Below, piece after piece: positions 9,121-62,714 of a stretch of 64,000 nucleotides of DNA (positions are counted from its first letter, which is position 1; every line of letters starts with the position of its first letter). The translations under genes and the position numbers were made by a program. Source of the stretch: Psammoneis japonica (taxonomy: Eukaryota); contig QPGO01000097.1 in NCBI GenBank assembly GCA_008632985.1, positions 124,001 to 188,000 on the forward strand, in the 5' to 3' direction. The notes under the pieces were generated by a model. The model was not told where the DNA came from. It searched no databases and saw only the letters and a list, made by a program, of their open reading frames with translations.

Positions 9121-10738
9121 TTGTGAACTTCGATAAGGAGTGTTAGATCAACAACAACTTTGATCTTGGCGGCAGTACCATAGCAGATAGCAGGTGCCAT
9201 TTAGTGAACCTTATGCTTATCAACTTTTTAGCAGGTGTTGGTTACTGATGGTTTCTGTACCTGGTTGCGGGTGCGATGAACACGCGCGAGGAGAGCACTC
9301 GCCCACCGCAGATCGGTGGGGGTGAGTCTTTATTATTTGGAGCGAAGGTAGCTGGCAGCGAGCTCTCGGCCTCGACGGGACATTGTTGTTGCAGCCTCTC
9401 CTTGTCGCAACGCCAATGGCTTGGCCAGAGCTGCAGTGTATGTGACTGTTTCAACCCCTGTTCGACCCCCCACCGTCGTCTGGAAAATGTGTTTGCTCTT
9501 GTTCAGAATTCATGCTCTCTTGTTCAGAATCATGAAGGGTGTCTGGCAATTGTTAGAACCTTCCAAGTGAGATTTAACAGTCAATGGAAATCAGTTGCAT
9601 CACACACACATTCTTGACAATTTCACACATCTGCTCATTTCAACATTGTTTTTGCATCCATCCACAACCAAGCTGACCTTCCAAACAGGAAATGACAGTC
9701 AAGGAAACTTGTCACTTGCTTCTGTCTCCATCTTGACAACCGCCATTGTTCATTTCTGACAACAATCATGTTCAATTGTCTTGTCAACCTGTTTGTGCAT
9801 TGGCTCCATGATGCTGTTCATTTTCTGCTGTTTGATTGTTCCATTTTGTTGTTTCCACACTGTGTGCCAAACAATGCCCCCTTTGTCCTGTTCTTGTTTT
9901 TCTCCTGCATTCCATCAGCTCCTGTTGTCCACCGCTGTCCCCACATGACGGGTGTGGTGTTTTGGTCCCCATGTCCTCCCCCTTGCAACCACTCTTGCTC
10001 TCTCCATTGTTGTCTGCACTGGGCAATGACGTCATCCTCCAATGATCAATCTTGCGTTTTCCTTCTGTTTGATTGGCCAAAGCATTGCCTGCAACTGGAG
10101 AAAACTTTGTGCCAATGATCATTTTTTGTGCATGTCTTGTGTTTCTTACAATCTTGTTTCATGCACTGCTTTTGCTCACCTTTGTGCCCTCTCTTGTTGC
10201 CCGTCTTCCTTTGTGTCTCAGGTCGCATGTCCATGTGTCTGTGTGAAGAAAAGATGTGTGTGCAAGTGTCAGTCGTTTGCATTGTGCACCCAATCTCCAT
10301 GCACTCACCACTTTTTTCCTCTTTCTCACCTTGTGTCCTGCATTTTGTTCCATCCCATTTGCAGTGCCACTGCCTGTTGCTGCAGCTCTCATTTTCATGT
10401 GTCACTTGCGACTTGAGTTTGCATTTTTTGTGTCTTGTGAGGGAGGGACAATTTGTGCTTTTGGCCAAACTGTGAGCCCCACCATCAGTTGATTTCTGCC
10501 AGCGTCGCTTTTTCAGCAACAATTTTGTTTTTAAATTCAATGTTTTTGTTGCAATGCAATGGTTTGAATGATTTGAAATGACCTCAATGAATCATTTGGC
10601 CATTGATGATGCCCCACACGCATGCAACAAGTTTGATTTTGTCACATGTTGAGATTGAAAATTTCACACTTCTGCCAGCACACCCCCATTTCCAGGACTT
10701 CAATCAGCCCCTTTTTTCATTTTGTGTTGTCATTGACC

Positions 10739-11900
10739 ATGCCACCCAAAAAAAGGAAGAAGCCGAGCCAACCAGTTGCTGACGACAACAATTCCAGCCA
10801 CATCAGTGGCACTGGCAGCCGTGGTGAGGGGAGCTGCTTGTGTTGCTTGAGCACCAGGCCAAGTTCCTCCTGCCAGGCAGCCCAGGTGAGACTCCAGGAC
10901 TGGCCCTTGGCAACATCAAGGCCCATCATCTGCAGCTGCTGCACCGTCTGATCACCCATCAGCTGCTGCTGCTGCTGCAGCCTCCATCAATGAAGAAGCC
11001 GACTCCTCTGACAATGTTTCTGAGAACTGTTCCCCTCTGATTTGGAAAAAAGACATTGAATTCCTCAAGCAGCACAACAAAGTCTCTTCCCACAACACTT
11101 CTGAGCTGCTTGGAGCCTCCAAGCATTGTGCCATTTACGGCATGAACCCAAACCAAATGTCTGGCAATGATTGCAGAATGTGGCTTTTGTTTTGCTGGAG
11201 GATGCACGGCCACACAAAAACCAAAATGAAAAGATGTGCAAGCAACTGCAGCAAAAGTGCAAAGCCCACAGTGCAAAAATTGCCGCTGCAAACAAGACCA
11301 TTGCCTCTCTCCAGAAAGCTCAGAAACAGGCCCTTCATGCCAGTGAAATGACAAATTTGGAGACCAACCTTGTGAAGAAAAGTGGGCAACTTGAAGGTGG
11401 GTCATGCTCTTCTGTTCTCTCTGGGTTCTCCATCCAAACAGGAGATTCGTGACACCATGAATTGCTGCTCACTCCTGGATGCTGGTGAGAAGTCTGAGTG
11501 CACCTTCACCTTGATGGTTTGGACCCAGTCTTCCCAAAAAACACAAAAAATGACAAGGACAGGTCTGACAATGAAGTCAACAAACCTGAAGTCAGTCAAA
11601 AAAGTTTCAGGAGAAGGTTGGCCCCTTGGCCCTCAACTTCATGAATCAAGAACAAAATGCCTTTGCATCCCACCTCAGAACACAAATCAATCACATTCTG
11701 GCTGCTGCCCAAGGCCAGCAGTGCCTTGTTTCCTGCTGTCTGGCAAAGCATCTTTGAGAAATGTTGTGGAGTCTGCAGCTCCAATCACCATGATGCAGGT
11801 GATGAAAATCCTTTTCCCCTCTTCATTGAATCTTCTCCATGTCACTCACAATGGCTTTGCGGTTCATTTGTCTTTTGCAGGTCAGCGCACTCCTGTTGAC
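10739..11900 (+). pseudogene. Degenerate ORF with N-terminal NLS-like motif and coiled-coil/acidic segments, probably TE-borne
   Basis: MPPKKRKKPSQP start; fragments such as MCKQLQQKCKAHSAKIAAANKTIASLQKAQKQ; broken by frameshifts and stops. Confidence 0.35.
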
Positions 11901-14200
11901 TTGCTTGCTTCCCCTCCCTCACCGGCATTGAATTGATGGTCGAGGAAAACAGTGCCATTGCATGTTGTTGCAATGCAGCCCATCTCTGCACCCCCTGCCA
12001 CTTTGGACAATTGGCCCCATCTCTGTGGGTGTATTTTTTGTTGCCTCTTGCTGTTGTTGTCCTCCTTTGTTGCACTTGAACACCAATGAAAGATTGCAAT
12101 CAGAGCCAACACAAAGTCACCAACTTTTGTGCCAAGAACAATGGGCCAACTGCAACCCACTGCATCAAGAGTGCCATTTGGGAGGCACTTGCCAGTTGAT
12201 CACTGCAAAGTTTCTCCTCACCAATGTGTTTTGGCATCATGAGGATGATCTGATTGACAGCCTGCACAACATGGATGATGCACCAGCCACACCCAAAAGC
12301 AGTGATCCAGCCACTGAGGATGTCACTCAAGAGTGTGCATGTTTGTGCAATCATTTCATTGCCAATGTCCCTTTGGCAAATTCCAAGCAGAAGTGCACTG
12401 CCCCGGACATTGCATGTTTCACAAAGCTGTGTGGCATTGTCACAACCTCTGACCGTGCATTGGATGGCACTCTCAATGGACCTGGGAACCTCAATTCAGG
12501 GTGCAGGCTTGGCTTTGTTTCCTCAAACAACAATTTGGAGGGGCAGAGGAACTGAACAAGCCAGCTGTCACTGCAAACACAGGTTCGGCTGCTTTTGCAA
12601 TGGACATCCCAGTTGGAACAACTCTTGATTTTCTGTCACACACCAAGGGAACAGGCCACAGCAACCTTGTTCCAGTGTGGAACAAGTTGTTTTCTCACCT
12701 TCCAAGCAGGATGATGAGGTGCAACCAAATGGAAAGGAGCCAGATGCAACCAAGAAGCTGGAGCATTCCATGGTGGACAACAACAACATGTTTGATGATG
12801 CTCATGGATCTGCCAGAGTTTGATGTGTCTCAGTCATGTCCTTTTTGGAATGTCCCAACTGCAGCAACCCCATCTGTCATCCCAAGAAGCAGTTCCTTGC
12901 ATGCATTGTCAATGCAGTTGTCACCTTTCTTAAAGTCACCAAATTTTGGATGCCTCACCACAGTCATGAGCTGGCTCCATTCTGTCTGGCTTTTCATGCA
13001 GACACATCCAATCCTCATTGGAGCTGACACTGCTCAGGTCATGGTGTTCATTCCTGTTCTTTCAAATTTGATTGGGTCTGTTCTTGCCAATCTTCATTGT
13101 GCATGAAGCAGACACCTGCAAAGACCCAAGACAAGGCATGCAACAGTTCCAAGGGGAGCATGCCAAAAATGCCGTGCTTTCCTCTGCCATGAGGGATGTC
13201 CCAAAACATGAGATGAGTCAAGAGCTGAGAAATGTCCTTGCACCATTTGCAAGAGGCAGCTGCCTTGCCATGATGATGCCTTTCCTCCATGGCCACCATG
13301 GCAGCCTCCACTGTCTCCTGGATGTTCTCTTGTTCCACCAAATTGCAAGCAAACAACGGATTGTCACCAAAACGCTGTGGCATGTCACAGCCCCTGTTCA
13401 TCTGGGAGATGTTGCTGGAATGGGAGTTGCAGTGACCTTTTGTGTTGCCAGTCATCATGCAAAGTCAAAAGTGGAGATGAACAAAGCCAAGAGATGGCAC
13501 CACAATTGGGAAACCAGTCTTTCACTTTGACAGTTTAAGCAACTCAGTGATGTCTCATGCAAAGTGCTGTGGCAGAACTTGATGCACGTCTCCTGTCCAA
13601 GCTTTGGCTGGAGGTTGGCGGTGGAATCATTGCTTGTCTTGGGGTGTGGCAACACCATTCCAAGTGTTGACCAAAGGGAGTGTGGCTGCAATGACACTCA
13701 TCATGATCAAAATTGCCCAATGCCACAAGAACGGGTTGTGCTTGCAAACAATCCATGTTGTCACAAGAAAAGGTGGAATCGCCAGACAGCACAACTGGGC
13801 AAACAAAGCATGACCTGGATGGGCAGCTGTTGCTGCTGAGTTGATCAAGGGAAGATTTGAGATCATGCTCCCGCTTGCTTCTGCCAGTCACCAGTGTCAA
13901 GAGAATGTGCTCATTTGTTTTGGGGCAGCACTTCTCATTGTGCATCCACTGACAAGACTGGACAACCTGGGGATCACAAAAGACCCTTCTCACACAATGG
14001 CTGCAGAAAGGAAAATTGGCACACATGCATTGGAGGGAAACTGGGACCCATGGGAGCAAAAATGGGCTCTGGGCCAACAAAGTCAAAATGCTTGGCTTTC
14101 ATGCATTGCAAGGTGGCAGAGTGGGAGAGAGACTCGTGCTCACAGTCACTCTCCTTGGCACATTTAGCCCAAGAAAGAAAAGCCTTGTGCAAACCATGGT
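11900..14200 (-). pseudogene. Degenerate Plavaka-like DNA transposase
   Basis: Minus-strand fragments DSTFSCDNMDCLQAQPVLVALGNF, WSTLGMVLPHP, GNTKGH...RGCD and GIFGMLPLELLHAL resemble the D..EP..TLG.F / W..LG / GD..G / G....P.E.LH motifs recalled for Plavaka transposases; no search run. Confidence 0.5.
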
Positions 14201-14249
14201 GGAGATGATGCTTCTTCATCATGACAGCCAGCTCTTCCTCCACTGGATG

Positions 14250-17200
14250 AGGCTTTTTGGTGGCATTGGTGTCACGAATGCAGGGAGGTTGCAACACCAA
14301 GCCTCTTTCATCTCCTCCAAATCAGTTGCCTCCATTCAGTGCAATCCTTCATCATCCTTGTCATTGTTGGGGAGGGAAGAGGATGACACAGAGCATTGTG
14401 CTGAGAGTGCATCGTCAAACTCCTCCTCAAGAAAAAGCATGTCATCACAGAAGATGCCATCATTGGGAAGGTCTGGGGCAAGCGGCATTGCTATCAGTGT
14501 TGAAGCCCCCAAAATGAAAAAGGAGAAGGATCTCAAGAAGAAGGCCACCAATGCTGTCATGTGGTGCTCCATCTCTTTCTGCCACAAGGTTGCTGGATCC
14601 AATGGCATCACTCCAGCAACTTTTGAGCCTGCATTTGTTGACATTCTTCAAGAATGCAGTGAGGCTGAGCACACTCATCTTTTTCAAGAACTCATTGCTC
14701 CTGCCATCAACAGCAAGAAGTCCACACACATCTCCAACCAAGTTGCACCACGTTTTGCTCAGGCTTGTGCCAACAAGGCATTTGCTGACAACATGCAAGG
14801 GTTCAAGTTTGCCAACCAGCCTCTGAACAACTCGACTGCTCTTTGTCTTGCATTTGTCAATGTCCTCAACTTTCTTTTTGTGGACCATCCCCACTGTGCT
14901 GCCGTCATGGAAGATGGGTGTGAGATCTCCAAGCACTCTGTCAACCCCAACTCTGGCAAGACAACAGCCAAATGCATCAAGAAATTGGATGTGCACGTCA
15001 GTGGCCAAGCTCATGACACCAACATCATGGAGTGTTGTCCAGTGTCACATGGTTGCTTTTGGCAAAAGCAGAAAGCAGTGGATCATGAGCAATGGCAACA
15101 CTCGTGAGATCACAACAAACATGCTCAAGACATTCAATCCATCATTTGCCCATTCATCCAGCATGGTGTGATGCCAGAGTGTTGCCCCCCAAGCTGTCCA
15201 TGATGCCCAGGACATCAGTGTCAGGGCTCTTGACATTGCTGCATGTTTCACAAATCTGACGATCCAAGATTTGGAAACAAATGTTGGTCGTGGCCCTGCC
15301 AGACCCTTTGGAAGCCAGTGTGTCTCACATCAGCTTGCCGAAAGAAAAGCCAACTTGAATGCTTCTTCAAACAAGCAATCTGCTTGTTTGCCATCAACAA
15401 CTGGAGCTGCTTCACCCAGTGAGAAATCCAAGTCATTGTTGTCTGCAGACAAGATTGAGCTCTGCAAGAAGATGGGCATGCTTGTCATCTCACATGACTC
15501 CCGTCAGCCTCCCAACATCCCGGTTGCGGCTAAGAAGAACTCTGACTCAACATCTGAACAGCACCTTTGCGCTCATTTTTTGACTTGTGGCTTTCTTGTA
15601 ACTGTCCCAGATGCAAGAAGCTGCGCATTGCCATCTTTGTGCTCTCCCTGAAGCAAAGTGTGCCAAGTTGGTCAACTTTGAGGAGAAGATGAAAAATCTT
15701 TCTTTTGCACCTGAGAAATGTCCTGTTGGTGCACTGGTTTTGTCTCAGATGAAACCAGCCCATTTGTTTTGTTTGAAAACATCCACTGACCACTCACCTT
15801 GATTTTTGTTTTTGTTCATGTTGCACCACCAGCTTGCATCAGCATTTTGTCCCAGGCTGCATTGGTGTCCCTGCAGATGAAGTTGTGCCCCCCTTGCCCT
15901 GGGGTGCAGAATCTTCCAAGTCTGCGTCACTTGGTTTGGTGCCGAAAATGTGCCTGATGTCCTGCCGGTTGCCTCTGAAGAGATTGAGGAGTTCTGTCCA
16001 GTCCTTTCCCCTGTGGTGACTGGAGGCTCTCCCTCTCAATGCATCCCAGCAATTGACAACTCATTCAAGAAAGCTGAGTGTGAAGAGTTCATCTGGACTC
16101 AGTTGCCACTTTGTGCCAGCCCCAATTGGACCAACCTTTTGACAAGGACAGTGTTTGTTAGAAATTTCATGTCTGAAGCTGTTTTTTTGCCATGTCTTGT
16201 TGCACCTTTGGAAGTTGGGTTTCCTGCACTCTGTTTCCCAAGAGATGCCATCCTTTGACTCTGGCAGTGTGGTCAACAATTGGGAGGATCCATGTTGTGT
16301 GACACCCAATGCTTTCCATTTGTGCACCCTTCTTTGTGAGCACAACAATGTTGACTTTAATTCTCTCTGAGGGCACCGTGCAGGATGGGAGCAAGAGTCA
16401 GACCTCAATGAGACACATGTGTTTGTCAGACCTTGGCAGGATTGCTCCATTTTGATGGAGACATGGCTTTGTTGGTGCAGCGGGTCAGTGGCATGCACGT
16501 TGGAGCACATCAGAATGTTGAGCGCATTGTGTTGCATCTTGATGGCAAAGTTGATCTCATTGCTGTCAAGATCACAGCTTGCATCTGCTGAGATGGTGTT
16601 CCAGCCTGTTGCAATGGGCACAACATGGAAGAAAATTTTCAAGACTGTTTTAATGGCAGGGACAAACTGTCCATTTGTGTCAATTCAGAGAAAACTCACA
16701 ATGCTCTTGTCAAGAACTCAAGCAGGGTTTTGATCTCATTTTTGACCAACAATTGAGACCATGTGTTTTGAATTGTCATCTGTCACCTCAGAGCTTGGTT
16801 GACAGTGACAAATTGTTCAAGCAGCCTTGGCCAGTTTTGGACAGCTCATTCCAACCCAAGCCTTTGTCCATGGCCTTGAATGATTTTTTTTCACTGGAAC
16901 ACAAGCTGGAGTGCTCCAAAGCTGTGGCAGAACATGATGTTGTGCATTGGATCTAGAATGCTTGGATTGCTTTTCCATCTCAAGAGATCCACCCAATTGA
17001 CGATGATGCTGCTGAAGCTCACCACACAATGAGGTGCAACCCAAACCTGGTTTGGATGCATGCATTGATCCAGCATGGCTGTGAAGTTGCTCAACAATTT
17101 GGTTGCAATTTTGGGGACCCCCTGACCCACACAATTGGGATGGTGGATGGTCACAATGCCATCAGCAGCTTGTGCAGCATGCATTTTGTGCCCCACATGT

Positions 17201-18775
17201 TGTCGAGATCATGCACCCATTCCTTCCAAGGATTGAGTTTCTATTGCAAATCACAACTGACTCCATTTGAGGTGGCAGCAGGCGGTTTCTCATGTGCTCC
17301 CAGATTCCTTGAACCCTGGAATTCTCCAGGATGGACTGTGGATTTTACCACTTCACAAGCACCACATGGATGACAACTTGCAAGCTGATGTTGCACAATT
17401 GTTGGAGCACACCATGTTCAATGTCTGTGAGTGCCTTTGCCATTCATGTGATGCAAGGCTTTCCACAGAAGGAAGTCCCAAATGCACTCAGCTTGAAAAA
17501 GCTCAACCTCATTCTGTCTTTCCTTTGCAAGCTTCTTGGGCACTCACACAACACCTGCACTTTGACTGTTGGGATTGTGCATCACAAGCTTGACAAGATC
17601 ATCTTTGTTCTTCCTGATTAAAAGTCCAAGATTGAGTGCCTCCTCTTGGAGGCAGCAACCTTGAATGGCATTTTGGAGCATCATGCTTGGCATGATCACA
17701 CACTTCGGTGTTGATTTTTTGTTTTCCAGAGTGTTCTTTGCTTGTCCATTTGCTGTCTTTTGGACTGTGCCAAGAGAGCACTCCACACCCTTCTGCAACA
17801 AAGATTGAGAACATTGCACCACGTGATCCGTGCTGCCAAGGAATTGGTGATGCAAGAAATTTTGGTGGTGGTGGTTGCTGCCGGGAATTTCAATTTTGGT
17901 TCTTTGTGCTGTGGAGCCCCATGGCAAGCTGAGGTTTGACCTTGTTCTTGTGGTCCTGAGGACAGGTTGCTGACAATGCTCTCAATTTTGTTGTTTCCCT
18001 CCTCCTGCTTGCTGGCATGGTCACTTTCATGAAATCTGTTGGCAAATCCATTGATCTGGAACTGGTTGCCTCCCTTTTTTCCCATGGCATCCTCAAAAAT
18101 TTGGTCCGCCTCAACCGGGTTGACAATGTGGTTAGCTCTGGTTGGCACAATCTGGGCACTGCCAAGAACTCTCTTCAAGGACAACAGCTTTTGTGTGTTT
18201 GGTCTGCACTTTGCATTTGTGGGGTGTTGGCATCAATTCCCAAGTGGCAATTTGGCTGGTGAAAAGAGCGGGCCAGCAGATGACATGTCTTGTCTAGTTG
18301 ATTGCAACCTGCCTCATTCTGTCCGTGTCTCTCAGCTGCTTCAGAAGCGTCCTTTTCTGACAAGAGCTGCCACATGGCTGGTGTGCTGTCAACTGTTTGC
18401 CGAGTCATCACCAGCCCCTGTGCATTTGTGGGGGTGTCGGCATCAACTCCTGAGAGGCAATTTGGCTGGTGAAAAGAGTGGGCCAGAGCAAATGACATGT
18501 TTGTCTGATCAATCCCAACCTGCCTCATTCTGTCTGTGTCTGATGGCTGCTTCAGAAGTGTCCTTTTTTGACAAGAGCTGCCACATGGCTGGTGTGCTGT
18601 CAACAGATCTCTGAGTTGTCACCGGTCCCTGCACAGACTCCACCTCACTTGGGACAGCTCGTGCATGGCAAATCCACAATTTCAGATTTGTCACGGACAT
18701 GATCTGGGATGTTGATGCTTGTGGAAGATCTTCCAGTTCTTTGGCATCAACTGCATCTGGCTGTGCATGCCCTGC
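14250..18775 (+). mobile_element. Degenerate retroelement (gag-like ORF, RT, RNase H), DIRS/Ngaro-like by inference; 3' part truncated at the satellite
   Basis: Gag-like fragments 14250-15700 with a Cys/His cluster; RT-like fragments LSPQSLVD, PVLDSSFQP, IHPIDDD, NPNLVWMHA, and HMDDNL at 17363 (YxDD equivalent); RNase H-like VDNVVS..W and LAGEKSGPADDMS. Confidence 0.6.
18212..18604. repeat. Imperfect tandem duplication, period 209 bp
   Basis: tgcatttgtgggg... at 18212 and 18421; both copies share ggcaatttggctggtgaaaagag and gacaagagctgccacatggctggtgtgctgtcaac. Confidence 0.9.
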
Positions 18776-19519
18776 TCAACTTGCCAAACTTGCAAAAGTC
18801 GCCAAAGTTGCCAAGCTCATCAAAGTCACCAAAGGTGCCAAAGTCACCAAAGCAGACAAACTCACCAAAGTTGACAAACTTGCCAAACTCACCAAAGTTG
18901 CCAAAGTTGACACACTCAACACAGTTGACAAAGTTGCCAAAGTTGACAAACTGGCCAAAGTTGCTAAAGTTGACAAACTCGCAAAACTCACCAAAGTCGC
19001 CAAAGTTGACACAAACTTGCCAAAGTCACCAAAGTTGACAAACTCACCAAACTCACCAAAGTTGACAAAGTCGCCAAAGTTGACAAAGTCACCAAAGTTG
19101 ACAAAGTCACCAAAGTCACCAAACTTGCCAAACTTGCCAAAGTTGCCAAACTCACCAAGCTCACCAAACTTGCCAAACTCACCAAACTTGCCACAGTTGA
19201 CTTGCCAAAGTTGCCAAACTTGCCAAAGTTGACAAACTCACCAAACTTGCAAAACTTGTCAAAGTTGACAAACTTGCCAAAGTCACCAAACCTGCCAAAG
19301 TTGACAAACTTGCCAAACTTTTCAAAGTCAACAAATTGACAAACTTGCCAAGTCAACAAACTCACCAAAGTTGACAAACTTGCCAAAGTCGCCAAAGTTG
19401 ACAAATTTGCCAAAGTTGACAAAGTTGGCAAACTTGCCAAAGTTGACAAAGTTGGCAAACTCACCAAAGTCACCAAAGTCACCAAAGTCACCTGAGTCAC
19501 CAAACTTGCCAAAGTTGAT
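18776..19519. repeat. 9-bp satellite (ccaaagttg / ccaaacttg / acaaactca variants), left block
   Basis: Directly visible 9-bp periodicity. Confidence 0.97.
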
Positions 19520-19764
19520 TGACAGGATTTGAACAAGATTTTAGTTTGTCACACACAATTGTGTGTGCTCTTCGTTCCGCGCGTGTCGCGCGATGTAGTT
19601 TGCTTTCGAGCCACTCGGCTCACAAGAACAACAACAGCAGTGCCGACATCATGACACCAGTCTTTCGGCTCCTGCAATGGTCTTTGCACGGAGATTCATC
19701 TGCCATTTAGACAGCAGCAAGGAGTCATTGTTTTCTTCCACCCAGTCATCTTCATTTTCTGTCA
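19520..19764 (+). repeat. 5' LTR
   Basis: tgacagga...ttctgtca; aligns without gaps to 26562-26806. Confidence 0.96.
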
Positions 19765-20579
19765 GATTGACAGTCTTGCTCTTTGTCATCCATTGAGCAT
19801 TCATCATCGGTCATCGAGAAATTTTTCAATGATGCGCACGGTTGGCGGTGGAAGTGCACATCTGCCTTCTTCACTGCTGCATGCTGGATTAAATCTACAT
19901 CTTTGGATTTACATCCAACACCTCCCATCGTTGGATGTGTTTGTTCAACGGATGTTTGTTTGACCAGGAATTCCCGAATTCTCAGACATCCAAGATTCCG
20001 GATTCCTCACAGAGGATCCCACCAAACCATCTGCTCGCGTCCATGTGCACACGATGTGAACCCTTGACTCTGGCCCTGCTCCATGCACGCCAAGTCTACT
20101 GCCTTGTATCTGCACCGGATTGCTGGTCTTCTACAGTCCTGCAAGGTCAACGAGGACAACTGTGAGAGGAAGCAGTTTGTGGTTGCAGCTGCATTGGGGC
20201 GAGGGTGCATTTCCCACGTTTGTTCATCCCTCCACAGTGCCAAATTTGGCCGGCCTGATCGGGTTGTCCAACCAACATAAAATGAGAACGGTTTGGAGGT
20301 CTTGTCCACCTCTGGTTGGCTTGTCAGCAGGGGTTTTTAACCCGTTGCTCCGCTCTCAGGCAACCCAAAGCGTCGCCAGCTGTGGGTTCGGACGTGCCGG
20401 CACAACTCTACGGACCAGATGGGAAGCTCAGCACTTAACTGCAAACAGGATGTCACAGCCTGGCGGCTTCTGACTCCCAAGATAGTTCCAGACATCAAGT
20501 CAAGATTCAAGTCAAGTTTCAAGTTGTTTCAAGCTCACCCTCCGAATCCAGCTGGTTCCGACATCCACCCAGTTGCAAC

Positions 20580-23500
20580 ATGGTTCTCACCAGGCAACAA
20601 CAAATTGATGGCCTCGAGCACATTCCAGGCACTGTTCTGAATCAAGCTGCAGACAGTCCGTTGCACTCCGCTCTCAACATTGATGGAACCAACTCGCATC
20701 AGGACCTTTTTCCTTTTACTCCGACACAACTGGATGCCCTTGTGTGCAACGATGGCACCAACCAGATGCCCTTGCCACGTGGTTGCAAAGCACACACAGC
20801 TGCGCTGATTAGCCTGCACACGGCAAAAGTGCGAGGCGGTGTGGATGTCAGCAACAACCCTCAATTGTTCACTCACGAGGAGTTCACTGACTGTCGTCTC
20901 AGTCCTGAGCATGTGGCATCCCTCTCCATGGGCACAGCGCCATCTGCTCCCACCCCTGGCTCTTTGCCACCCAAACCACGTGACCCTGTGCGTGAATTTA
21001 AACGAGGCATCAAACGTGACCCACTCACCTTCACGACTCTCAAGTCAGACAAACAGTGGCACACGTGGCACACCTCCATCATCGCACAGGCCCGCTCCCA
21101 GGACATTGAACTCATTCTTGATCCGAAGTGCAAGCCCTCTGCAGCTGAGGACAAGGCCCTGTTTGATGAACAACAGAAGTGCATGTTTGCCGCATTCGAA
21201 CAGATCTTGCAGAATGACAAAGGCAAGGTGCTTGTTCGTCAACATGTTGACTCCTCTGACACTAAAGCGGTGTGTTGCGACCTTTCCAAGTGCGCCCTCA
21301 CTTTTGCTTGTGCATCCCTGGAGTCCTCGACCCTTCTCACGTGCCTCACCACCGCTCGCCTCGGTGATGGCACCTGGAAGGGATCCACCCATGCATTCAC
21401 ACTTCACTGGCAGGACCAGCTTCACAAGCACGAAGCTCTTGTCCCGGGTGCAGACCATTTCTCTGCTGGCCAGAAATGTGTCATGCTTGAGAACACCGTT
21501 CATCCTGTCAAAGAACTCCATTCGGTGAAGAACCAAGCTGATCAGTTCCGCACGCAGAATGGAAAGGGTCTCTCTTGTGAAGAGCACTGTGGACTTCTGC
21601 TCTCTGCTGCAGCACAGTGCGACAGCACGTTCGCCCCCAAGACGGCTCCTTGCACTCCGCGCCGTGCCATCTACGAACATGACCCAGTCCCTGACGACCC
21701 TGATGATGATGCATTCTTCGACATCGACAGTGATGTTGACGTCATCCAAGCTTGTGCTGTGCAAACTCGCGGCAATTCCCTCACCAAGGAGCAATGGCGT
21801 CGCATCCCTCCAGACCATCAGTGCATTTGGGACACCTTGCCCCAGTCCACCAAGACCATCATTCTTGGCTCGTGCACCACCCACACCGGCAACTGCCATG
21901 ACTTGACAGCAGTCAACCTGCACGACCTTCGCATTGGCAGCAATGGCGATGTCAACTTGTCCGCCAACACTCATGATCTTGCGTCAGCCTTCGCACAATC
22001 CGACGCCACAGCCGATGCAGCCGATGCTGACCCCACTCTGGCTCATCTCACCAGGCGCAAGCCCCTGCCACCCGGCAACTTGCAACATCTCCTGGCACCT
22101 GAACGGCCTCCTTCCGCCCGTTCTGGCAAGAAACCGCCCGGATCTGCACCTTCCGTCCGCTCCAACACGAAGCCCAATGACACTGACATTGAGATCAACG
22201 GCCACAAATGCCGTCGCGTCAACAACCACAATGTCGTCCACTCTGCCTCGACCCACAAGTCAACTCGCAAAGGTGCTCTCGTGGATCGTGGTGCAAACGG
22301 TGGCATCACCGGTGATGATGTTTGTGTCATTGCCCACGCTGGTCGCCAGGTTGACGTCCAAGGTGTCGATGATCATCAACTGGTCGACATCCCCATTGTT
22401 GCTGCTGGTGGTGTCATCCACATGCAACGCGGCCCTGCCATTGCCATCCTTCACCAGTGCGCCTGCGCTGGAAAGGGGAAGACGATGCACTCTTGCGGCC
22501 AGCTCGAGTGGTGCAAACACGATGTCAACAATCGGTCCATCAAGGTTCCCAATGGTCTGCAGTGTGTCACCACTGTTGATGGATGCATCATTCCCATCGA
22601 CATTAAAGCCGGCCTCCCGTGCATCGCCATGCGCCCGTGCACTGACGCCGAATGGGACACTCTGCTGCATGTCATTCTCACTGGTGATGACACATGGGAT
22701 CCATCTGTCCTTGACCACCAGTTCACGGATGATGAGACGTGGCATGATGCCGTGTCTGACCTCCAAGACGACCCGACTGCCAACCTCTTTGATGAGTTTG
22801 GCAACTGTCGTCACCGCCATGTTGTCAACAATGCCATGCTTGCAGACTCCGTCCTTGATGATCACCTGCTCCCGACATCTCATTTCTTCTACGAATGCCA
22901 TGAGCGCAAACTCAATCCCAAGGATCCCGACTTTGAGTCCCTCCACCCCCACTTTGGCTTTCTCCTGAAGGACACTGTCCACCACACTTTTGATTGCACA
23001 ACGCAGTGTGCCCGCATGCCAGCCAGCACGCACCTGAAAAAGGCACACAAATCGCCCAACCCGGCTCTCAATGTCCACTGACGTGATGAACCCGTTGCCA
23101 CTGACATGGTCCACTCTGACACCCCTGCTGTTGACTCTGGTTGCACCAGCGCCCAGCTCTTTGTCGGCATGGAATCTCTCGTCACTGACGTGTGTGGCAC
23201 CAAAACTGACAAAGAATTTGTCAACACCCTCGGAGACAACATTTGCAATCGCGGTGCCCCGTCCAAGCTCATCAGCGACCGTGCTCAGGTTGAGATCAGC
23301 AACAAGGTTCTTGGCATCCTTCATGCCCTCTTCATCTCCAGTTGGCAAAGCGAGCCTCACCACCAGCATCAGAATTTTGCTGAACACCGCTGCCAAACTG
23401 TGAAGACCATGGCTGACACCATCATGGATCGCTTCAGGTCCCTGGCTTGCACCTGGCTGCTCGCCCTGATGTGCGTGTGTTTTGTGCTCAACCACACAGT

Positions 23501-26445
23501 GTCCGCCAAGCGACGCATTCCAGCTCTGGGTGGGACCTTGCACTGCTGCACTGTGACATCAACAGTTTTTTGGATCGCGTCGCATGTCGCGCACGTGCAT
23601 TTCTACGTGTTACATTCTACAAAATTGTTTCATGCTCCCTGTTTTGCAAAGCCAAAGAGGCTTTCTATTTTCAACATTTGTGAGAACAAAAATGCGCTGG
23701 GCATGTTCTGCAATGTCTGAAGAACACACCTGGGCAAACTGTCAATGATGTGCTCCAAGTGTGAAGGAGGAGACACGTTCGTAAAATTGCCTCTTTTTCT
23801 GTTGGTGATCATTTGCACTTTCATTGCAGTGTGAATTTGCTGCGGAGCTTGCACACAGAATTCCACGGGCCCAATGTCGCACGGAGTCCCACCTGGGACT
23901 GGAACCCGTCAAGCTCCACTGGCGCACCCCCACCGAGGTGCCATCCAGATCTGCTCCCAACATCAGCCCACTGGTGGGAACCAGGGCACTGCCACCTGGA
24001 TGATTCCGACTGGCCGTCCGAATCCCATGAATTACGTGGTCGCTTCGTTGGCATCGCCGAACATGTTGGTCACCAAATGACATTCAAGATTCTTTCCGAC
24101 GACACTCAGAAGATTCTCTGCTGTTCCAACGTGCGCTCCGCCCATGATCCATCTGCTCCAAACCTGCGTCTTGATCCTCTTGATGAGAGATCTGCTGACC
24201 CTGTCATTAAATCCTGCCATGACTCCAAGGATTTGCCAGATTCACCAGATGGGGAGATGATCAGGATGCCCAAAATGCCGGTCTTTGACCCCGAGGACAT
24301 CATCGGACACACCTTCCTCATGAAGCCACAAGAGGATGGTCAACGCCACAGAGCCTGCATCGTCAAAGCCATTGAGGACCACAACTGGGAAATTGGAGGC
24401 AATCCTGAACTGGTCAAGTTCATTTGCTCCATCAACAATGACAAATGCGAGGAAGTCCTGGCCCACAACGACATCATGCACCACATTGAGCAAGAAGACG
24501 AGGACACCACTCTCTGGAAGTTCCGATGCATCGCATCGCACGAAGGACCATTGCGACCCCATGATCCCCATTGGAAAGGCTCAAGCTGCAACGTCATGCT
24601 TGAATGGGAGAATGGGGAGATCACATCCGAACCCCTTGCCATCATTGCCAAGGACAACCCCATCACCTGTGCCATCTGCGCGCGTGAGCACAGCCTTCTA
24701 GAAACCGAAGGATGGAGATGTTTTTGCAAGACAGCACTTTGTCAGAAGAGGCCATTCCGCATGGCCAACCAAGCCAAGTTGCGCTCCTTTTGCACTGCAC
24801 CACAACACAAGTGCGGGCATGAAGTGCCACGGGACTGCAAGCATGCCATGGCCCTTGATGAGCGCAACGGCAACCGCAAGTGGGGAGACGCAACGGACCT
24901 CGAGATGACTCAGCTTGATGAGTGCGAGGTCTTCCATGACTGCAGACACCACAAGGATTCCAGTGCTCCATCAGGACACAAGAAGATCCGGGCACATCTC
25001 ATCCACAACGTCAAACATGACGGACGGCACAAAGCAAGGCTTGTTGCCAATGGACACCTCACAGACGTGCCCATCAACAGTGTCTGTTCTGGAGTGGTGT
25101 CTCTCTGTGGCCTGCGAATGATGATCTTCCTGGCCGAACTCAACAAACTAGAGACCTGGGCCACTGACATTGGGAATGCCTGCCTTGAAGCTGCAACCAA
25201 GTAGAAACTGCACATTGCAGCAGGCCCCAAGTTTGGCGACCTGGAAGGACACATCCCTGTCATCCACAAGGCCTTGCACGAACTCTGCAGCTCTGGCCTC
25301 AGATGGCATGAACGCTTTGCTGATTGCTTGCGGTGCCAAAGGCTTCTTTCCATGCAAAGCCGAACCCGACATCTGGCTGCACAGGAATGGTGACCACTGC
25401 GAATGCGTGGCAGTGCATGTGGATGACCTGGCCTTCACCATGAAGGACCCCCAGGCTTTTGCAGACACCCTCATGGAGAAGCACAAGTTCAAGCTCAAGG
25501 GCACTGGACCATTGGAGTTCCATCTTGGCTGCAACTTCACCCGTGACCCAGACAGTGCCCTGTGCCTTGCTCCCCGCAAGTGCATTGAGTGCATGGTTGA
25601 CAACCACGTGCGCCTCTTTGGGGAGAAGCCCCGCACTGATGTGCTTTCACCCCTTGACAAGGGTGACCACCCTGAGCTCGACACCTCCAAATTGCTCAAA
25701 CCCGATGGCATGCACCAACTCCAATCCTTGATTGGATCCCTGCAATGGGCAGCATCTCCAGGTTGCATTGACATTGCTGCGGCTGTCATGTCCCTGTCTG
25801 GCTTCCGTGCAGCGCCCCGTCAAGGCCACCTAGACCGTGCCAAATGCATCTGCGGATTCCTCTCCAAGATGCGTCATGGCACCCTCCGAGTGCGCACCGA
25901 GGAGCCCGACCATTCGGACCTCCCTGAGCCCATGTGTGACTGGGCTCAATCTGTGTGTGGGGAGGCAGAAGAGCTGCTCCCGCAAGATGCACCCAAGCCG
26001 CTTGGCAAGTTCGTCACCACCACACACTGCGTTGATGTGAACTTGTTCCATTGCATGCTCACTGGATGCTCTGTCACCGGCATCCTCCATTTCCTCAACA
26101 AGTTTCTGGCTGATTGGTTCTCTAAGAAACAAGCAACAGTTGAGACCACCATGCATGGATCCAAGTTTGTTGCCGCAAGGATGTGTGCGTTGAGCAGATC
26201 ATTGATCTGCGCATCACTTTGCGTCACCTTGGCGTTCCCATTCGTGAAACATGTTGCATGTTTGGGGACAACAAGTCAGGTGTGGACAGTGCCACCATCC
26301 CGCACTCCAAGTTGCACAAGCGACACACTGCCCTCTCATTCCATTGAGTGCGTGAGGCGATTGCCTCCGGTTTCCTTGAGTTTCATTTTGTCGAAGGCTC
26401 CTGCAACCCGGCTGACATCCTCAGCAAGCATTGGGGTCACTCCTA
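20580..26445 (+). pseudogene. Copia gag-pol polyprotein, disrupted
   Basis: Stops at 23079-81 and 25202-04, frameshifts, MITE insertion in integrase, and near-total Tyr loss (2 Tyr in the 833-aa ORF; none seen in the 463- and 441-aa ORFs). Confidence 0.92.
23512..23910. mobile_element. 399-bp non-autonomous TIR element (MITE-like) inserted in the Copia integrase
   Basis: Flanked by an aagc duplication (23508-11, 23911-14); imperfect ~25-bp TIRs gacgcattccagctctgggtgggac versus reverse complement gacgggttccagtcccaggtgggac; removal restores NHTVSAK-LHWRTP. Confidence 0.8.
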
Positions 26446-26561
26446 AATCTGCCAATCTGGAACCTCCTTTGTCCTCCAATGTTTTGGAACTTTGATCCCG
26501 AGGCTTTCAACCAATCCGACTTCGAATCTGTCGCTGTTGGCCCCTCAAGCAAACTGGGGAG

Positions 26562-26806
26562 TGACAGGATTTGAACAAGATTTCAGCTCATCACACACAA
26601 TTATGTGTGCTCTTGGCTCTGCACGCGTCGCGCGATGCAGTTTGCTTTCGAGCCACTCGGCTCACAAGAATGACAACAGCAGTGCCGACATCACGACACC
26701 AGTCTTTCGGCTCCTGTGATGGTCTCTGCATGGAGACTCATCTGCCATTTAGACAGCAGTGAGGAGCCATTGTCATCTTCCACCCAGTCATCTTCATTTT
26801 CTGTCA
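26562..26806 (+). repeat. 3' LTR
   Basis: Copy of 19520-19764, preceded by a polypurine tract. Confidence 0.96.
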
Positions 26807-28350
26807 TTGACAAACTCGTCAAAGTCACCAAACTCACCAAAGTTGACAAACTCGCCAAACTCGCCAAAGTCAACAAAGTTGACAAAGTGATGAACTCACC
26901 AAAGTTGCCAAACTTGCCAAACTTGCCAAAGTTGACAAACTCACCAAACTCACCAAAGTTGACAAACTCAGCAAAGTCGCCAAACTTGCCAAACTCGCCA
27001 AAGTTGGCAAACTCGCCAAAGTTGCCAAAGTTGCCAAAGTCACCAAACTTGCCAAAGTTGACAAACTTGCCAAAGTTGCCAAAGTTGGCAATCTTGCCAA
27101 AGTTGTCAAACTCGCCAAAGTTGCCAAAGTTGCCAAACTCGCCAAAGTCACCAAACTCACCAAACTTGCCAAAGTTGCCAAACTCGCCAAACTTGCCAAA
27201 GTTGCCAAAGTCACCAATTTTGCCAAAGTGGCCAAAGTTGCCAAACTTGCCAAACTCGCCAAAGTTGCCAAACTTGCCAAACTCGCCAAACTTGCCAAAG
27301 TTGCCAAAGCTGCCAAACTTGCCAAAGTTGCCAAAGTCACCAAACTTGCCAAAGTTGCCAAAGTTGTCAAACTCGCCAAAGTTGCCAAACTCGCCAAAGT
27401 TGCCAAAGTTGCCAAACTCACCAAACTTGCCAAAGTTGCCAAACTCGCCAAACTTGCCAAAGTTGCCAAAGTTGACAAACTCACCAAACTCACCAAAGTT
27501 GACAAACTTGCCAAAGTCACCAAACTTGCCAAAGTTGCCAAAGTTGGCAAACTCGCCAAAGTTAGTTGCCAAAGTCACCAAAGTTGACAAACTTGCCAAA
27601 GTTGCCAAAGTTGCCAAACTCGCCAAACTTGCCAAACTTGCCAAACTCGCCAAAGTTGCCAAAGTTGCCAAACTCGCCAAACTTGCCAAACTTGCCAAAC
27701 TCGCCAAACTTGCCAAAGTCACCAAAGTTGCCAAAGTTGCCAAAGTTGCCAAACTCGCCAAACTTGCCAAACTTGCCAAAGTCACCAAAGTCACCAAAGT
27801 TGACAAACTTGCCAAAGTTGCCAAACTCACCAAACTTGCCAAAGTCGCCAAACTTGCCAAAGTTGCCAAAGTTGTCAAACTCACCAAAGTTGCCAAACTC
27901 GCCAAAGTTGCCAAAGTCACCAAAGTTGCCAAACTTGCCAAACTTGCCAAAGTTGCCAAAGTTGACAAAGTTGACAAACTCGCCAAACTCACCAAAGTTG
28001 ACAAACTTGCCAAAGTTGCCAAAGTTGACAAACTTGCCAATGTCGCCAAAGTTGCCAAAGTTGGCAAACTCACCAAACATGCCAAAGTTGACCAACTTGC
28101 CAAAGTTGCCAAAGTTGGCAATCTCACCAAAGTCATCAAACTCGCCAAAGTTGCCAAAGTTGCCAATCTCGCCAAACTTGCCAAAGTTGCCAAACTTGCA
28201 AACTTGCCAAAGTTGGCAAACTCGCCAAAGTCACCAAACTTGCCAAACTTGCCAAAGTTGGCAAACTCGCCAAAGTTTTGTCAAACTTGCCAAAGTTGCC
28301 AAAGTCATCAAACTCGCCAAAGTTGCCAAAGTTGACGAACTCTTGCCAAA
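26807..28350. repeat. 9-bp satellite, right block
   Basis: Same unit family as 18776-19519; continuous with it once the Copia is removed. Confidence 0.97.
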
Positions 28351-29590
28351 CTGGCCAAAGCGTCTGCAGGAAATTGCCATTTTCACCATCTGCATCTCAA
28401 AGTTGATTTGAGTGGTGCCTGCAAGCACAAAATCTGCTGGACAAGACAAATTTGTTGCCAACACCACCTTGCAGAAAAGACATTCTTAGACACAACTTTT
28501 GACACAAAAAACTGTGAGACAAAAAAATGGGCTGTGCAAAGACCCGGATGTGTGCAATTGAAAATGTCCCAACTTTTGTGTTGTGCAGGAATGCACCAGG
28601 CTTCTGCATGCAAAAGAACCCGTGTGCGCATTTTTCAAAATGTGTGACATGGCAAGGCATGCTTTGAAAAATGTTTGCAGTCAAAACAAAAGACAAAAAA
28701 AATGTTTTTGCACGACACACCATTCCTTGTTTGTTGTTGAGAAATCGTCGTTGGTGTCACCATGGTGCAATGGCTGCGATTGTGTTGTTTGTCTCCAGCG
28801 GCTGCAAGCTCCTCATTTCCGTTGATTTTATTTTGTGCTGATGACACCTGCGTGCACAGCAAGCACTGTGCAGCAGGCTGGTGCTGCGCAGCGGTTTTGC
28901 ACAGACAGCATGCACGTTTGAGCAATTCCTCAAACATTGAGCCCTGTTTGCTCAAACATGACATGTTTGAGCAAAAGGCGGTGTTTCGACAAAACGTCAT
29001 TCAAATCGCACACTGCAGTGCCCACAATGTCAACACATGTTTGTTCGAAATGTTGTCATGTGAAACTTGTGTGTTTTGAGCAAAATGCAAGCACGGCGCA
29101 ACAGCAGCAGGCATCATGAGTGCGCAGTGGATGGACAGATGACGGATGATGATGAGAGGCCGCCCCACCCCCCTCATTGTTCTCAGATGACTGGGGTGAT
29201 GATGGGGTCAGTTGCGTCGACCCGTTTGGGTCAACAATGCTGAAAATTCCCTCCCGACCGAACCCTTTGTTCACTCATGTGTTGGCATGTGCTGCACACC
29301 ATCAGATGCATGCGTGTGTGGTTGTTGCTCCCATTCGGTGGCGTCACTGTGTCATGTCATCGAGGTGTGCGGTGGTCTACTCTCTACTCTCTACAGCAGC
29401 TGCTAGAGTAGAGAGTGCCGGTAGAGTCCAGCTGAGGCGGTGGCAGTGGCAGGCGAATGCCGAGCGCGAGATCCTCGCCACGTCACCCGCAGCACACGCC
29501 CTCCAGCAACTGTAAATGAAAAGTGCGCGCGAGCGCGCAGAGCACATTCACCGTGCGAGAAATTTGGAATGCCACAAAATGCGAACGACA

Positions 29591-40048: not shown

Positions 40049-40607
40049 GTTGTCTATGTCTATGGGTTCCCACTACTTTCAACTTCTATTCTTCGTCTTG
40101 GTTCGCGTCGCCGGTGCAATAAAACTTACAAAACAGTCACAGCAACAAACAGCAAAAAAGATTCCTAACCACTCAAGATCACTCGCGAAGATCCTGAGAA
40201 TTGGCATACGATTTTATGTCTTTCTTCGGGATGTTATATTTTCATGAATGAACGGAAAGTTGTTAGTCATTCACTCCCATTAACATGGCACAGTGAATCT
40301 AATCAAAAGCTTAATTGATACATATCAATTGCCCGTTTCAAAACATAAGAAGAAAGATACTTATCATAGAGTGACATGACAACAGTCACATTTTTCTTGT
40401 CCGTTTTTTCTCCTCCTTTTTTTTTTCTTCTGCATTTTGTCGGCATGCATCCATCACTGTATTAATACCGGTACTTTAACAACATACCTCCATTAGAGCG
40501 TAGGCATTGTTCGTTCCTCATTTTTGCTGTTGAAGGCCTTGCCAACAAGGTTGTGACCAAAGGAATTGTCGTTGCGTCCGTGTGTCGTGTGGGAGAGAGC
40601 CGCCACA

Positions 40608-58981: not shown

Positions 58982-59014
58982 TTTTGAGAAACAGCCACCA
59001 CAAGATCAGAAACA

Positions 59015-60166
59015 ATGGCAATGAAGCCGGTCCGTTTGTTCGCGTTTTTCATCACATTGCTCTCTCTAGTAGGGCTTGCTTTTGGAAAGGCATCCCGAAC
59101 GACTCAAAGAGATGCTATTGCATACATTGTTGATCAGGTCCAACTGATGGCAGGCACGGCAAGCCTCGCCGCCGTGCTGAGGCAGGGCGCAAGGATGTTT
59201 CGCACTAGTGAACGTCAACTCCGGCGTTGGTACAAGCACTATCTCTTTTATGGAGAACTACCATTCGACACGTCACGAGAGTGGAAAAGACTTTTGAGAC
59301 GGTCCACTGGGGCTTGGCAAGGAGGACGGCACTTTCGTCCAAGGCACGTCGAAGCCCTTCGAAAGATTCTTGAGCGCAATCCTGAGCATTATCTTGATGA
59401 GTTTGTCCACGATCTGTGCATTGAAACTGGAACTCTGTTTCATCCGTCCACTGTCTGGAGAGCCCTTCATGACAAATTGGGATGCTCTCTAAAGACACAC
59501 GCTGCCGTTGCAAGGGAGAGAAACGAGCGACTCCGACATGAGTGCAAGGTGGCTTTGGCACTTTTTGTTTTCGACCCATGTCAAGTGATCTTTTGCGACA
59601 AGACACACAAAGACAAGAATGCTGCCAGACGCCGTCGGGCTTGGGGGGTGCGCAACGAAGACCTTGTTTTGAAGAAATGGTTCCAGGATGCAGTGCGCTG
59701 CACATGCCTTGCAGCTTGCAACATTAATGGGTTTGTTGTTGAAGCTTGTGACACCGTCAGGAGAGACAATGTCAGTGATGAGGGAGCAGCAGGAACTGTG
59801 GACTCAGACCGATTTTATGAATGGGTAGAAACACATTTGGCACCACAGCTGGGTGACTGTGAAAAAGGAGAGAAAAATTCGGTGGCAGTGATGGATAACG
59901 CATCGACGCACTTTGACCGTCGCATCAAACGATTGATAGAGAAAAAGAAGAACGCGAGGTTGCTGTACACTGCACCCTGCTGTCCCGACCTCAATCCAAT
60001 TGAAAAAATGTTTTCAGTGTACAAAGCATGCCTCCGTCGCCATGGACAACTTGAGGGTCATCAGGCGGATTGGCAAGACTTGCACTATGGGGCGTTGCTT
60101 TCAGTAACTCCCGACATAGCAGCGAAGCACTTTCGAAAATGCGGGGTGCCGGGGATGGAGAATTAG
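59015..60166 (+). CDS. IS630-like DD35E transposase (ORF open but carries substitutions at conserved sites)
   Basis: HTH region (YLDEF...STVWRALH), IFCD, VMDNASTH, APCCPDLNPIE; 35 residues between the second D and E. Confidence 0.92.
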   Translation: MAMKPVRLFAFFITLLSLVGLAFGKASRTTQRDAIAYIVDQVQLMAGTASLAAVLRQGARMFRTSERQLRRWYKHYLFYGELPFDTSREWKRLLRRSTGAWQGGRHFRPRHVEALRKILERNPEHYLDEFVHDLCIETGTLFHPSTVWRALHDKLGCSLKTHAAVARERNERLRHECKVALALFVFDPCQVIFCDKTHKDKNAARRRRAWGVRNEDLVLKKWFQDAVRCTCLAACNINGFVVEACDTVRRDNVSDEGAAGTVDSDRFYEWVETHLAPQLGDCEKGEKNSVAVMDNASTHFDRRIKRLIEKKKNARLLYTAPCCPDLNPIEKMFSVYKACLRRHGQLEGHQADWQDLHYGALLSVTPDIAAKHFRKCGVPGMEN

Positions 60167-62692: not shown

Positions 62693-62714
62693 GTTTTGAT
62701 CCTCGATTGTAAAT

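Follow-up and report, generated by a model that had tools for sequence, protein, structure and literature searches.

A 64,000-nucleotide stretch of DNA from the diatom Psammoneis japonica (assembly GCA_008632985.1, contig QPGO01000097.1, positions 124,001 to 188,000; hereafter the window) holds a dead Ty1/copia-type retroelement from which the dinucleotide TpA has nearly vanished (observed-to-expected ratio, O/E, 0.09; CG O/E 0.61). We put at about 75% the probability that this DNA has undergone transposon-directed point mutation in the diatom nuclear genome, a process replacing TpA by CpA or TpG in the double-stranded DNA of the chromosome. The evidence comes from conserved codons of the element, from its two long terminal repeats (LTRs) and from other marked units of the window. 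A preliminary description of the element, made from the letters of the window, had already proposed TpA mutation in DNA after insertion.

A Ty1/copia-type Element Inserted in a Minisatellite

The element is a Ty1/copia-type (diatom CoDi-like) LTR retrotransposon. An RVT_2 reverse transcriptase (RT), direct LTRs with TG..CA ends and a 5-bp target-site duplication (TSD) with one mismatch were found, and the parts are laid out as follows.

18781..19517, no strand: minisatellite, left part, the insertion target (Tandem Repeats Finder, period 9, 82 copies)
19515..19519, plus strand: left TSD, ttgaT, fifth base unlike the right copy
19520..19764, plus strand: 5' LTR, 245 bp, TG..CA ends
19765..26561, plus strand: internal region with a dead polyprotein (in-frame stop at 23079-23081; frame changes near 23.7, 25.2 and 26.15 kb)
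24170..26560, plus strand: part coding for RT and RNase H, three frame segments matched by homologues (tblastn, 120 homologues)
25416..25418, plus strand: His codon CAT where the catalytic motif of RT has its Tyr, HVDD here versus YVDD in the majority of homologues
26562..26806, plus strand: 3' LTR, 245 bp, with a purine-rich tract (..ctggggag) just before it
26807..26811, plus strand: right TSD, ttgaC
26812..28334, no strand: minisatellite, right part (Tandem Repeats Finder, 26837-28334, 167 copies)

The open reading frames (ORFs) of the element lie at 20439-23081, 23082-23720, 23765-25204 and 25152-26495; of the roughly 2,020 residues of the pol ORFs, 3 are Tyr, 121 are His and 95 are Cys. 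Such long frames persist because TAA and TAG stops were erased. Pfam RVT_2 was matched at E values of 6e-4 and 1e-3, scores that fall under the curated cut-off because of the mutations, and no Pfam integrase or gag was matched in the element even at E up to 5; by-eye reading found an integrase-like D..D..E spacing in 23082-23720. RT homologues numbered 1,373. Among the matches listed, PF07727 was present in 120 of 120, and the named ones came from Cylindrotheca. Self-BLAST of the element against the window returned the two LTRs alone and no other copy, and tblastn of RT and DDE homologues on the window revealed no additional copies.

TpA Was Lost to CpA and TpG in Conserved Codons

The codons of the element were compared with those of the 120 tblastn homologues, restricted to the 374 codons at which 30 or more homologues aligned and 70% or more of them agreed. 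Identity to the homologues was retained in 306 of the 374. Conserved Tyr was kept at none of 21 positions (11 Cys, 8 His, 1 Leu, 1 Phe), versus 306 of 353 for other residues (Fisher p = 1.6e-17). Codons that carry CA or TG were all kept (His 17/17, Gln 6/6, Cys 3/3, Trp 8/8), none of the 34 having changed towards TpA. Because Tyr was lost throughout and the CA/TG-bearing codons were preserved, TpA became CpA or TpG and not the reverse, in agreement with the ancestral state assumed in the preliminary description. The unambiguous single-base changes in conserved codons were distributed as follows.

A>G: 13, of which 13 at TA
T>C: 10, of which 9 at TA
C>T: 9, of which 9 at CG
G>A: 11, of which 10 at CG
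Transversions: 11

More than one change was required in 10 further codons, and 4 codons were ambiguous. Tyr codons contain TA by definition, so that the contrast between residues is informative and the A>G class itself is not. Polarised C>T and G>A changes fell at CpG in 19 of 20 cases, on both strands; the coding part had no C>T outside CpG and a single T>C outside TpA. Among the inferred CGN Arg codons (n = 23), 16 were kept and 7 now read Cys, His or TGA. His and Cys outcomes at former Tyr codons were interleaved along the gene, and the preceding 5' base had no influence on which of the two arose (His:Cys 4:5 behind a purine, 4:6 behind a pyrimidine). By its codons, the element has undergone two context-bound processes, one changing TpA to CpA/TpG and about 90% complete, the other changing CpG to TpG/CpA and about 30% complete.

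The LTR Pair Records Changes Made after Insertion

The two LTRs of an element are identical when made, and differences between them therefore arose in the chromosome. The pair aligned without gaps at 90% identity, with 24 mismatches (9.8%) comprising 22 transitions and 2 transversions. Four reciprocal TG/CA doublets were counted (19547-8, 19629-30, 19675-6 and 19718-9), several such doublets having been noticed before, together with a non-reciprocal adjacent mismatch pair, TT versus CA, at 19732-3. TA stood in a single LTR at three sites (TA/CA at 19542 and 19596; TG/TA at 19560-1). The remaining mismatches were 5 CG versus TG/CA sites, 6 transitions in other contexts and the 2 transversions, and 8 CG and 1 TA were common to both LTRs. 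The states reported earlier for 19542/26584 (T/C), 19596/26638 (T/C) and 19547-48/26589-90 (TG/CA) are right, whereas the differing base placed at 19560 is 19561 (19560-61 TG versus 26602-03 TA). When 22 transitions were placed at random on the left LTR, at least four reciprocal doublets appeared in 2 of 20,000 trials, so the doublet pattern is not due to chance.

We modelled TpA loss in the LTRs from a TA O/E of 0.58-0.69 and the base composition, which gave 9-11 ancestral TpA, with an independent loss of 0.8-0.9 per LTR. The model predicted 0.1-0.4 TA sites kept in both LTRs (1 observed), 1.7-3.5 kept in one (3 observed) and 3.0-4.4 doublets (4 observed). Since the counts lie near the model, most of the TpA loss would have followed insertion; on these small counts, and with equal rates assumed across sites, we infer that the element arrived with normal TpA and was mutated in place.

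Only CpG decay might instead have acted after insertion, on an element copied from a TpA-free master and mobilised in trans, in which case the YR (pyrimidine-purine) differences would reflect deamination of methylated CpG. This account draws on the five LTR sites with CG versus TG/CA, on the 19 of 20 polarised C>T/G>A changes at CpG, on the large number of mutated copies (see below) and on the contexts of the four doublets (ACGA/TCGT and GCGA/TCGC), which are among the least-surviving CpG contexts of the old island described below; other family copies also have CG at doublet sites of the element. However, CpG decay alone, calibrated on the 8 intact and 5 once-changed CpG, predicts 0.4-0.8 doublets against the four seen (P(>=4) = 0.0007-0.008). 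Nor does it agree with the three sites at which TA is still present in one LTR alone, with the absence of coding changes towards TpA (0/34), or with a TpA-free state that reaches non-element DNA and a DNA transposon. We consider it quite unlikely. The preliminary description had derived the doublets from a TA or a CG ancestor; their number favours TA, while a single doublet is not assignable to either.

The same differences bear on dating. Kimura two-parameter divergence between the LTRs was 0.108 when every site was counted and fell to 0.034 once the YR-type sites were excluded, so that LTR-divergence dating overestimates the age about threefold here, as had been predicted.

The Target-site Duplication Differs outside Any TpA

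Excision of the element with one TSD copy restored the phase of the 9-bp minisatellite across the empty site, which identifies a single insertion. The minisatellite is itself open in several frames, giving 'ORFs' of 553 and 529 aa made of K/L/P/N/S repeats, and its unit variants TCG, TTG and TCA at one place represent CpG decay within the array.

The TSD letters had been read correctly, but their use as proof of a change in a TpA context fails. The two arrays contain TTGAC 33 times and TTGAT not once, and their units start with CAAA in 234 cases, TAAA in 1 and TGAA in 1; had TAAA been their original start, TGAA would be expected in about half of them today. C was thus almost certainly the duplicated base, and the left copy changed from C to T before a T, outside any TpA. 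We also tried a 4-bp TSD (TTGA/TTGA plus an extra T); this reading, which puts a T/G mismatch on LTR base 1, fares no better than the 5-bp one. An excerpted part of PMC2806351 describes a diatom copia element with a 4-letter duplication, TTCC.

The differences in which the left side has T and the right side C (19519-19733 versus 26811 and 26584-26775) form a run that looks one-sided and confined to one strand, and the coding part has almost none of this kind. The LTR differences could have come from recombination or ectopic gene conversion between the element and further copies of its family, a possibility that is compatible with TpA mutation of chromosomal DNA. In its favour are the great size of the family (14,176 contigs, with the LTR bins deepest; see below) and the six out-of-context LTR transitions, which are one-directional and far commoner than in the coding part. 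On the other hand, mismatches extend across the LTR (19542-19733) with no single tract, the flanks restore one minisatellite in phase, as expected of a single insertion, and conversion merely shifts the question, because the donor copies would still have been mutated independently in DNA. It strikes us as an improbable source of the differences.

The Mutated Island and Other Marked Units of the Window

The loss of TpA extends beyond the retroelement, both within a sharply bounded island that surrounds it and in units elsewhere in the window.

About 9580..29375, no strand: hypermutated island, near TpA-free, with CpA/TpG excess, 19.8 kb, sharp borders
18212..18633, no strand: 211-bp tandem duplication in the island, outside the retroelement
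28335..29375, no strand: right island edge, no recognised repeat, TpA lost, CpG normal from about 28.55 kb
58988..60166, plus strand: Tc1/IS630-like DDE_3 transposase ORF of a DNA transposon (Pfam DDE_3, E 2e-15), CpG normal
60455..62596, minus strand: second small TpA-poor, CpG-normal patch, 15 TA in about 2.1 kb

The island contains 59 TpA in 19,771 bp, where about 790 would be expected at background density (1,548 in 38,901 bp). Per kilobase, TA O/E was 0.01-0.09 in the island (one bin 0.21) versus 0.45-0.87 outside; CpA/TpG O/E in the island was 1.4-2.5, and background CG O/E was about 1. The last dense TA before the island lies at 9575, and dense TA resumes at 29378. CpG O/E was 0.05-0.24 in the older part (10-19 kb), the very low values spanning about 9.7-18.8 kb, and 0.44-0.77 inside the element, and it was normal from about 28.55 kb; 28300-29375 holds 2 TA (28487 and 28829) versus 38 CG. 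Bins of 500 bp showed no strand-coherent CA-only or TG-only patches.

The TpA that survive are unevenly distributed over four-base contexts. YTAR (TTAA, CTAA/TTAG, CTAG) accounted for 31 of the 59 in the island versus 291 in the background, and RTAY (ATAT, GTAC, ATAC/GTAT) for 2 versus 454 (YTAR/RTAY Fisher p = 1e-10). The process thus seems to prefer certain four-base contexts, RTAY being the best targets. Among CpG contexts, those of the TCG type survive least in the older island.

TpA-poor stretches with normal CpG were found at 28.5-29.4 kb, in the DNA transposon (59.3-59.8 kb) and at 60.45-62.6 kb. As such stretches exist and the oldest DNA lacks both dinucleotides, TpA loss came first and was faster.

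The DNA transposon bears the same codon signature, with 3 of 8 conserved Tyr columns kept in the DDE_3 transposase and 5 of 8 now Cys (TGC/TGT); no single homologue among the 78 compared shows the change at more than one of these columns. In the 211-bp tandem duplication, 208 aligned positions had 31 mismatches, among them 24 transitions; there were 5 reciprocal CA/TG doublets, 1 TA versus TG and 6 CG versus TG/CA (5 TG, 1 CA). A control 234-bp tandem repeat outside the island (42090-43254), with 41-54 mismatches and 19-34 transitions per pair, gave 0-2 doublets per pair and 7 across 10 pairs.

Editing of the RNA or cDNA intermediate, by an ADAR-like A-to-I activity or by a deaminase on minus-strand cDNA, would deliver copies already mutated on arrival. 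ADARs have a 5' neighbour preference that TpA to TpG, an A>G change with a 5' T, resembles, and the most heavily mutated object in the window is a retroelement. To our knowledge, ADARs occur in animals only. Against such editing, A>G and T>C are about equally frequent on the sense strand (13 and 10), so that both strands were changed, whereas editing of one template strand yields one type; LTRs copied from one template would match fully; and the surviving YTAR and preferred RTAY contexts do not reproduce the ADAR 3' preference. Because both strands of the element were changed and the DNA transposon, the tandem duplication and the unrecognised flanks are marked as well, the change took place in chromosomal double-stranded DNA and not in RNA or cDNA. 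We give editing of the intermediate almost no credence, and the conclusion drawn against it at the outset stands.

That TpA was mutated in DNA after insertion thus survives from the preliminary description with its foundations altered. The LTR counts fit, and the other grounds given here are stronger than those first offered; the TSD argument fails, the doublet argument was overstated, and six LTR transitions fit neither context.

Other Features of the Window

An orphan ORF of 759 aa on the minus strand (60446-62722) overlaps the second patch. It has 1 Tyr, a TA O/E of about 0.12 and normal CpG, and neither a homologue among 1.84 billion representatives nor a Pfam family was found for it; it is probably a frame kept open by loss of TAA and TAG, not a gene. 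The spacer between this patch and the DNA transposon (60166-60455) is very rich in TpA, with 24 TA in 290 bp, twice the background, and so the TpA-poor patches are discrete units with sharp edges.

ORFs are open in all six frames of the island. Pfam searches of 16 ORFs of its older part and of 2 ORFs outside it gave nothing above noise. At the island border, 29375-29425 contains short palindrome-like words with TA (ctac/gtag-type, around gcagctgc), which may mark a boundary or the end of an element.

The flanking ORFs, by Pfam, encode a ketoacyl synthase, a geranylgeranyl transferase beta subunit, an HSF-type factor, an ABC transporter and a WD40 protein, and the flanking genes retain long intact ORFs. 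Diatom homologues came from Seminavis robusta (69%, the transferase), Cylindrotheca (RT) and Chaetoceros debilis (a transposase). The control repeat lies within an ORF without Pfam family at 40557-44933 on the plus strand (1,458 aa), which carries five 234-bp (78-codon) repeats at 42090-43259, 77% alike.

The Signature in Family Copies and Other Assemblies

Contigs of one DNA sequencing run (X1) were aligned to 19400-26561 at 80% identity or more; they are Logan contigs, which drop rare variants. The element was covered by 14,176 contigs, with summed depth highest in the LTR bins, and the variant places comprised 1,106 transitions and 150 transversions. The element family is thus very large and varies mainly by transitions. 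A look-up of sequencing runs for words of 19000-27300 listed one DNA run and no RNA run.

Among the homologous proteins, Tyr had given way to His or Cys in 3 of 120 (among the matches listed), at 9/12, 11/18 and 7/21 of their conserved Tyr columns, whereas the Arg columns were unchanged. In 80 related metagenome loci, TA O/E was 0.31-1.06 with a median of about 0.69, compared with 0.09 for the element. The TpA-loss signature was present in two of the 80, L041 and L042, which have the two lowest TA O/E values: L041 (0.31) had lost Tyr at 7/18 columns, and 16 of its 27 single-base changes were of the TA type, and L042 (0.33) had lost Tyr at 6/21. The control loci L001 and L003 had 0 TA-type transitions, and L065 had 15 CpG-type and 0 TA-type. 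Because the peptide pattern behind the metagenome scan included Tyr/Phe, mutated copies are under-sampled in it.

The signature therefore recurs, though rarely, in independent assemblies, and CpG decay is often unaccompanied by loss of TpA. Many metagenome copia relatives (L065, L057, L021, L003 and others) have a CpG O/E of 0.04-0.25 with normal TpA. As most related elements elsewhere keep TpA, the process would be lineage-restricted, and it looks so.

Observations Weighing against TpA-directed Mutation

Several observations count against our interpretation. The TSD difference is opposite in direction, from an ancestral C to T in the left copy, and at nine of nine places (the six out-of-context LTR transitions, the two TA/CA sites and the TSD base) the left side reads T where the right reads C. 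In view of this one-sided run, 19542 and 19596 could be local C>T changes in the left LTR and not TpA loss in the right. No LTR site was polarised directly, there being no outgroup LTR among the 80 metagenome loci (best 67% protein identity) and no LTR place among 40 of the 1,288 variant rows of run X1. At the doublet sites 25880-1 and 26038-9 of the element, run X1 copies show CG beside CA and TG, so that CpG-derived doublets exist in the family. The best DNA run contains 0.51 of the sampled 31-letter words of 19000-27300, and all contigs differ from the letter of the window at five places (20996, 21395, 25556-7 and 25712; among 40 of 1,288 variant rows); the letters of the window are thus not confirmed base by base. 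The target may be either repeated DNA or a chromatin domain, and no candidate enzyme is encoded within the window.

The word share and the discordant places could also point to an artefact of a long-read assembly in which base calling went wrong at modified bases of silent chromatin, at CpG and TpA for instance; strand-specific miscalls at a palindromic modified site would give reciprocal TG/CA. Missing words are nevertheless expected for a single copy of a large family, given that the contigs drop rare variants, and the run X1 contigs (word depth 26-63) themselves vary between CA, TG and CG from copy to copy. Conversion is near complete at Tyr codons, flanking genes have long intact ORFs, and the Tyr to His/Cys signature with low TA O/E appears in independent public assemblies. 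Miscalling is in our judgement very improbable.

Discussion

The data lead us back to point mutation of TpA in chromosomal DNA. A fuller version of this interpretation is that some diatoms possess a dedicated genome-defence mutator unlike RIP-like chemistries (RIP, repeat-induced point mutation), an enzyme, perhaps a DNA adenine deaminase or a thymine-modifying activity, recruited to transposons or silent chromatin that rewrites TpA, best RTAY, to CpA/TpG on both strands until no Tyr codons or TAA/TAG stops are left, before CpG decay, and that is restricted in lineage; we would place its chances slightly below even. On our main interpretation, the copia-type element inserted into the 9-bp minisatellite, duplicating 5 bp of it. 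Some nine tenths of the TpA of the element would then have been lost in place on both strands, converting nearly all Tyr codons to His or Cys, and erasure of TAA and TAG would have left long meaningless ORFs. A second, slower process, presumably deamination of methylated cytosine, has changed CpG to TpG/CpA in the same DNA, leaving young insertions TpA-free yet CpG-holding and the old part of the island without both.

Because TpA loss saturates before CpG decay, the process is likely to be enzymatic, and by analogy with fungal RIP it may be aimed at repeats or silent chromatin. If the process is real, one tentative chemistry, somewhat less likely than not, is deamination of adenine at TpA on either strand, the resulting hypoxanthine being read as G. 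tRNA adenosine deaminases act on A following U, which makes a TpA-specific relative conceivable. Mispairing with G of an oxidised or otherwise modified thymine at TpA is less likely still.

Such a process, if confirmed, would be transposon-killing point mutation outside fungi with a base chemistry (A/T to G/C at TpA) opposite to that of RIP. It would imply a DNA-modifying or deaminating activity of tight dinucleotide specificity, possibly a natural A-to-G (or T-to-C) DNA editor, and would bear on genome defence. In practical terms, hypermutated DNA keeps long ORFs, such as the orphan of 759 aa and those in six frames of the island, that gene callers will take for genes; standard Pfam searches miss mutated elements, RVT_2 having scored under the cut-off and the integrase having gone undetected; and LTR-divergence dates are inflated.

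Searches of full-text articles outside subscription journals and supplements did not turn up any account of TpA-directed hypermutation, whether in diatoms or in other organisms. The excerpted text of PMC2806351 does not mention dinucleotides, RIP or deamination, and that of PMC9998398 does not mention TpA. This TpA-erasing way of mutating transposons to death is apparently undescribed.

Comparison with Known Systems

Editing of retroelements by animal APOBEC and ADAR proteins, as presented in part of PMC4866542, likewise leaves clustered, context-dependent transitions in genomic copies of LTR elements. Those enzymes edit single-stranded cDNA or RNA, on one strand and in retroelements, whereas here both strands, a DNA transposon and non-element DNA are affected. 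ADAR-type editing was rejected on the sense-strand counts (A>G 13, T>C 10) and on the changes in the DNA transposon and tandem duplication, and APOBEC-type editing (one strand, TC/CC) on the C>T/G>A changes, which lie at CpG in 19 of 20 cases and on both strands. The TCG-directed RIP-like mutation of Microbotryum, known to us from the abstract of PMC5381629, resembles the present case as a RIP-like process that lies outside the ascomycetes and has another sequence context, and in that TCG-type CpG survive least in the old island; it differs in being a cytosine deamination, with no TpA loss reported in that abstract.

Decay of methylated CpG resembles what we found in the change of CG to TG/CA on both strands and in the low CpG O/E (0.05-0.24) of the old island, and the CpG part of the pattern is presumably ordinary decay of this kind in silenced repeats. 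It explains part of the pattern, but not the separate, faster loss of TpA, which also affects stretches with normal CpG.

Fungal RIP is the closest in form. In Neurospora and other fungi, RIP turns C into T, chiefly at CpA, with new TpA as the outcome. The likeness lies in near-saturating transitions that are confined to repeats and transposons, sharply bounded and perhaps spilling over into neighbouring DNA, in action on both strands, in destruction of coding capacity and in the dinucleotide signature left behind. RIP acts on duplicated sequence only, a rule that may or may not apply here; the element family is multi-copy in run X1. Relatives of the fungal RIP and MIP methyltransferases, DNMT4, are widespread in diatoms according to the portion of PMC9998398 consulted, and would not explain an A/T chemistry. 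Unlike in RIP, TpA is here destroyed by T>C and A>G (O/E 0.01-0.09), none of the 34 CA/TG codons has moved towards TA, and the host is a diatom. Because the signature of RIP, C>T at CpA with gain of TpA, is thus reversed, we do not class the process as RIP.

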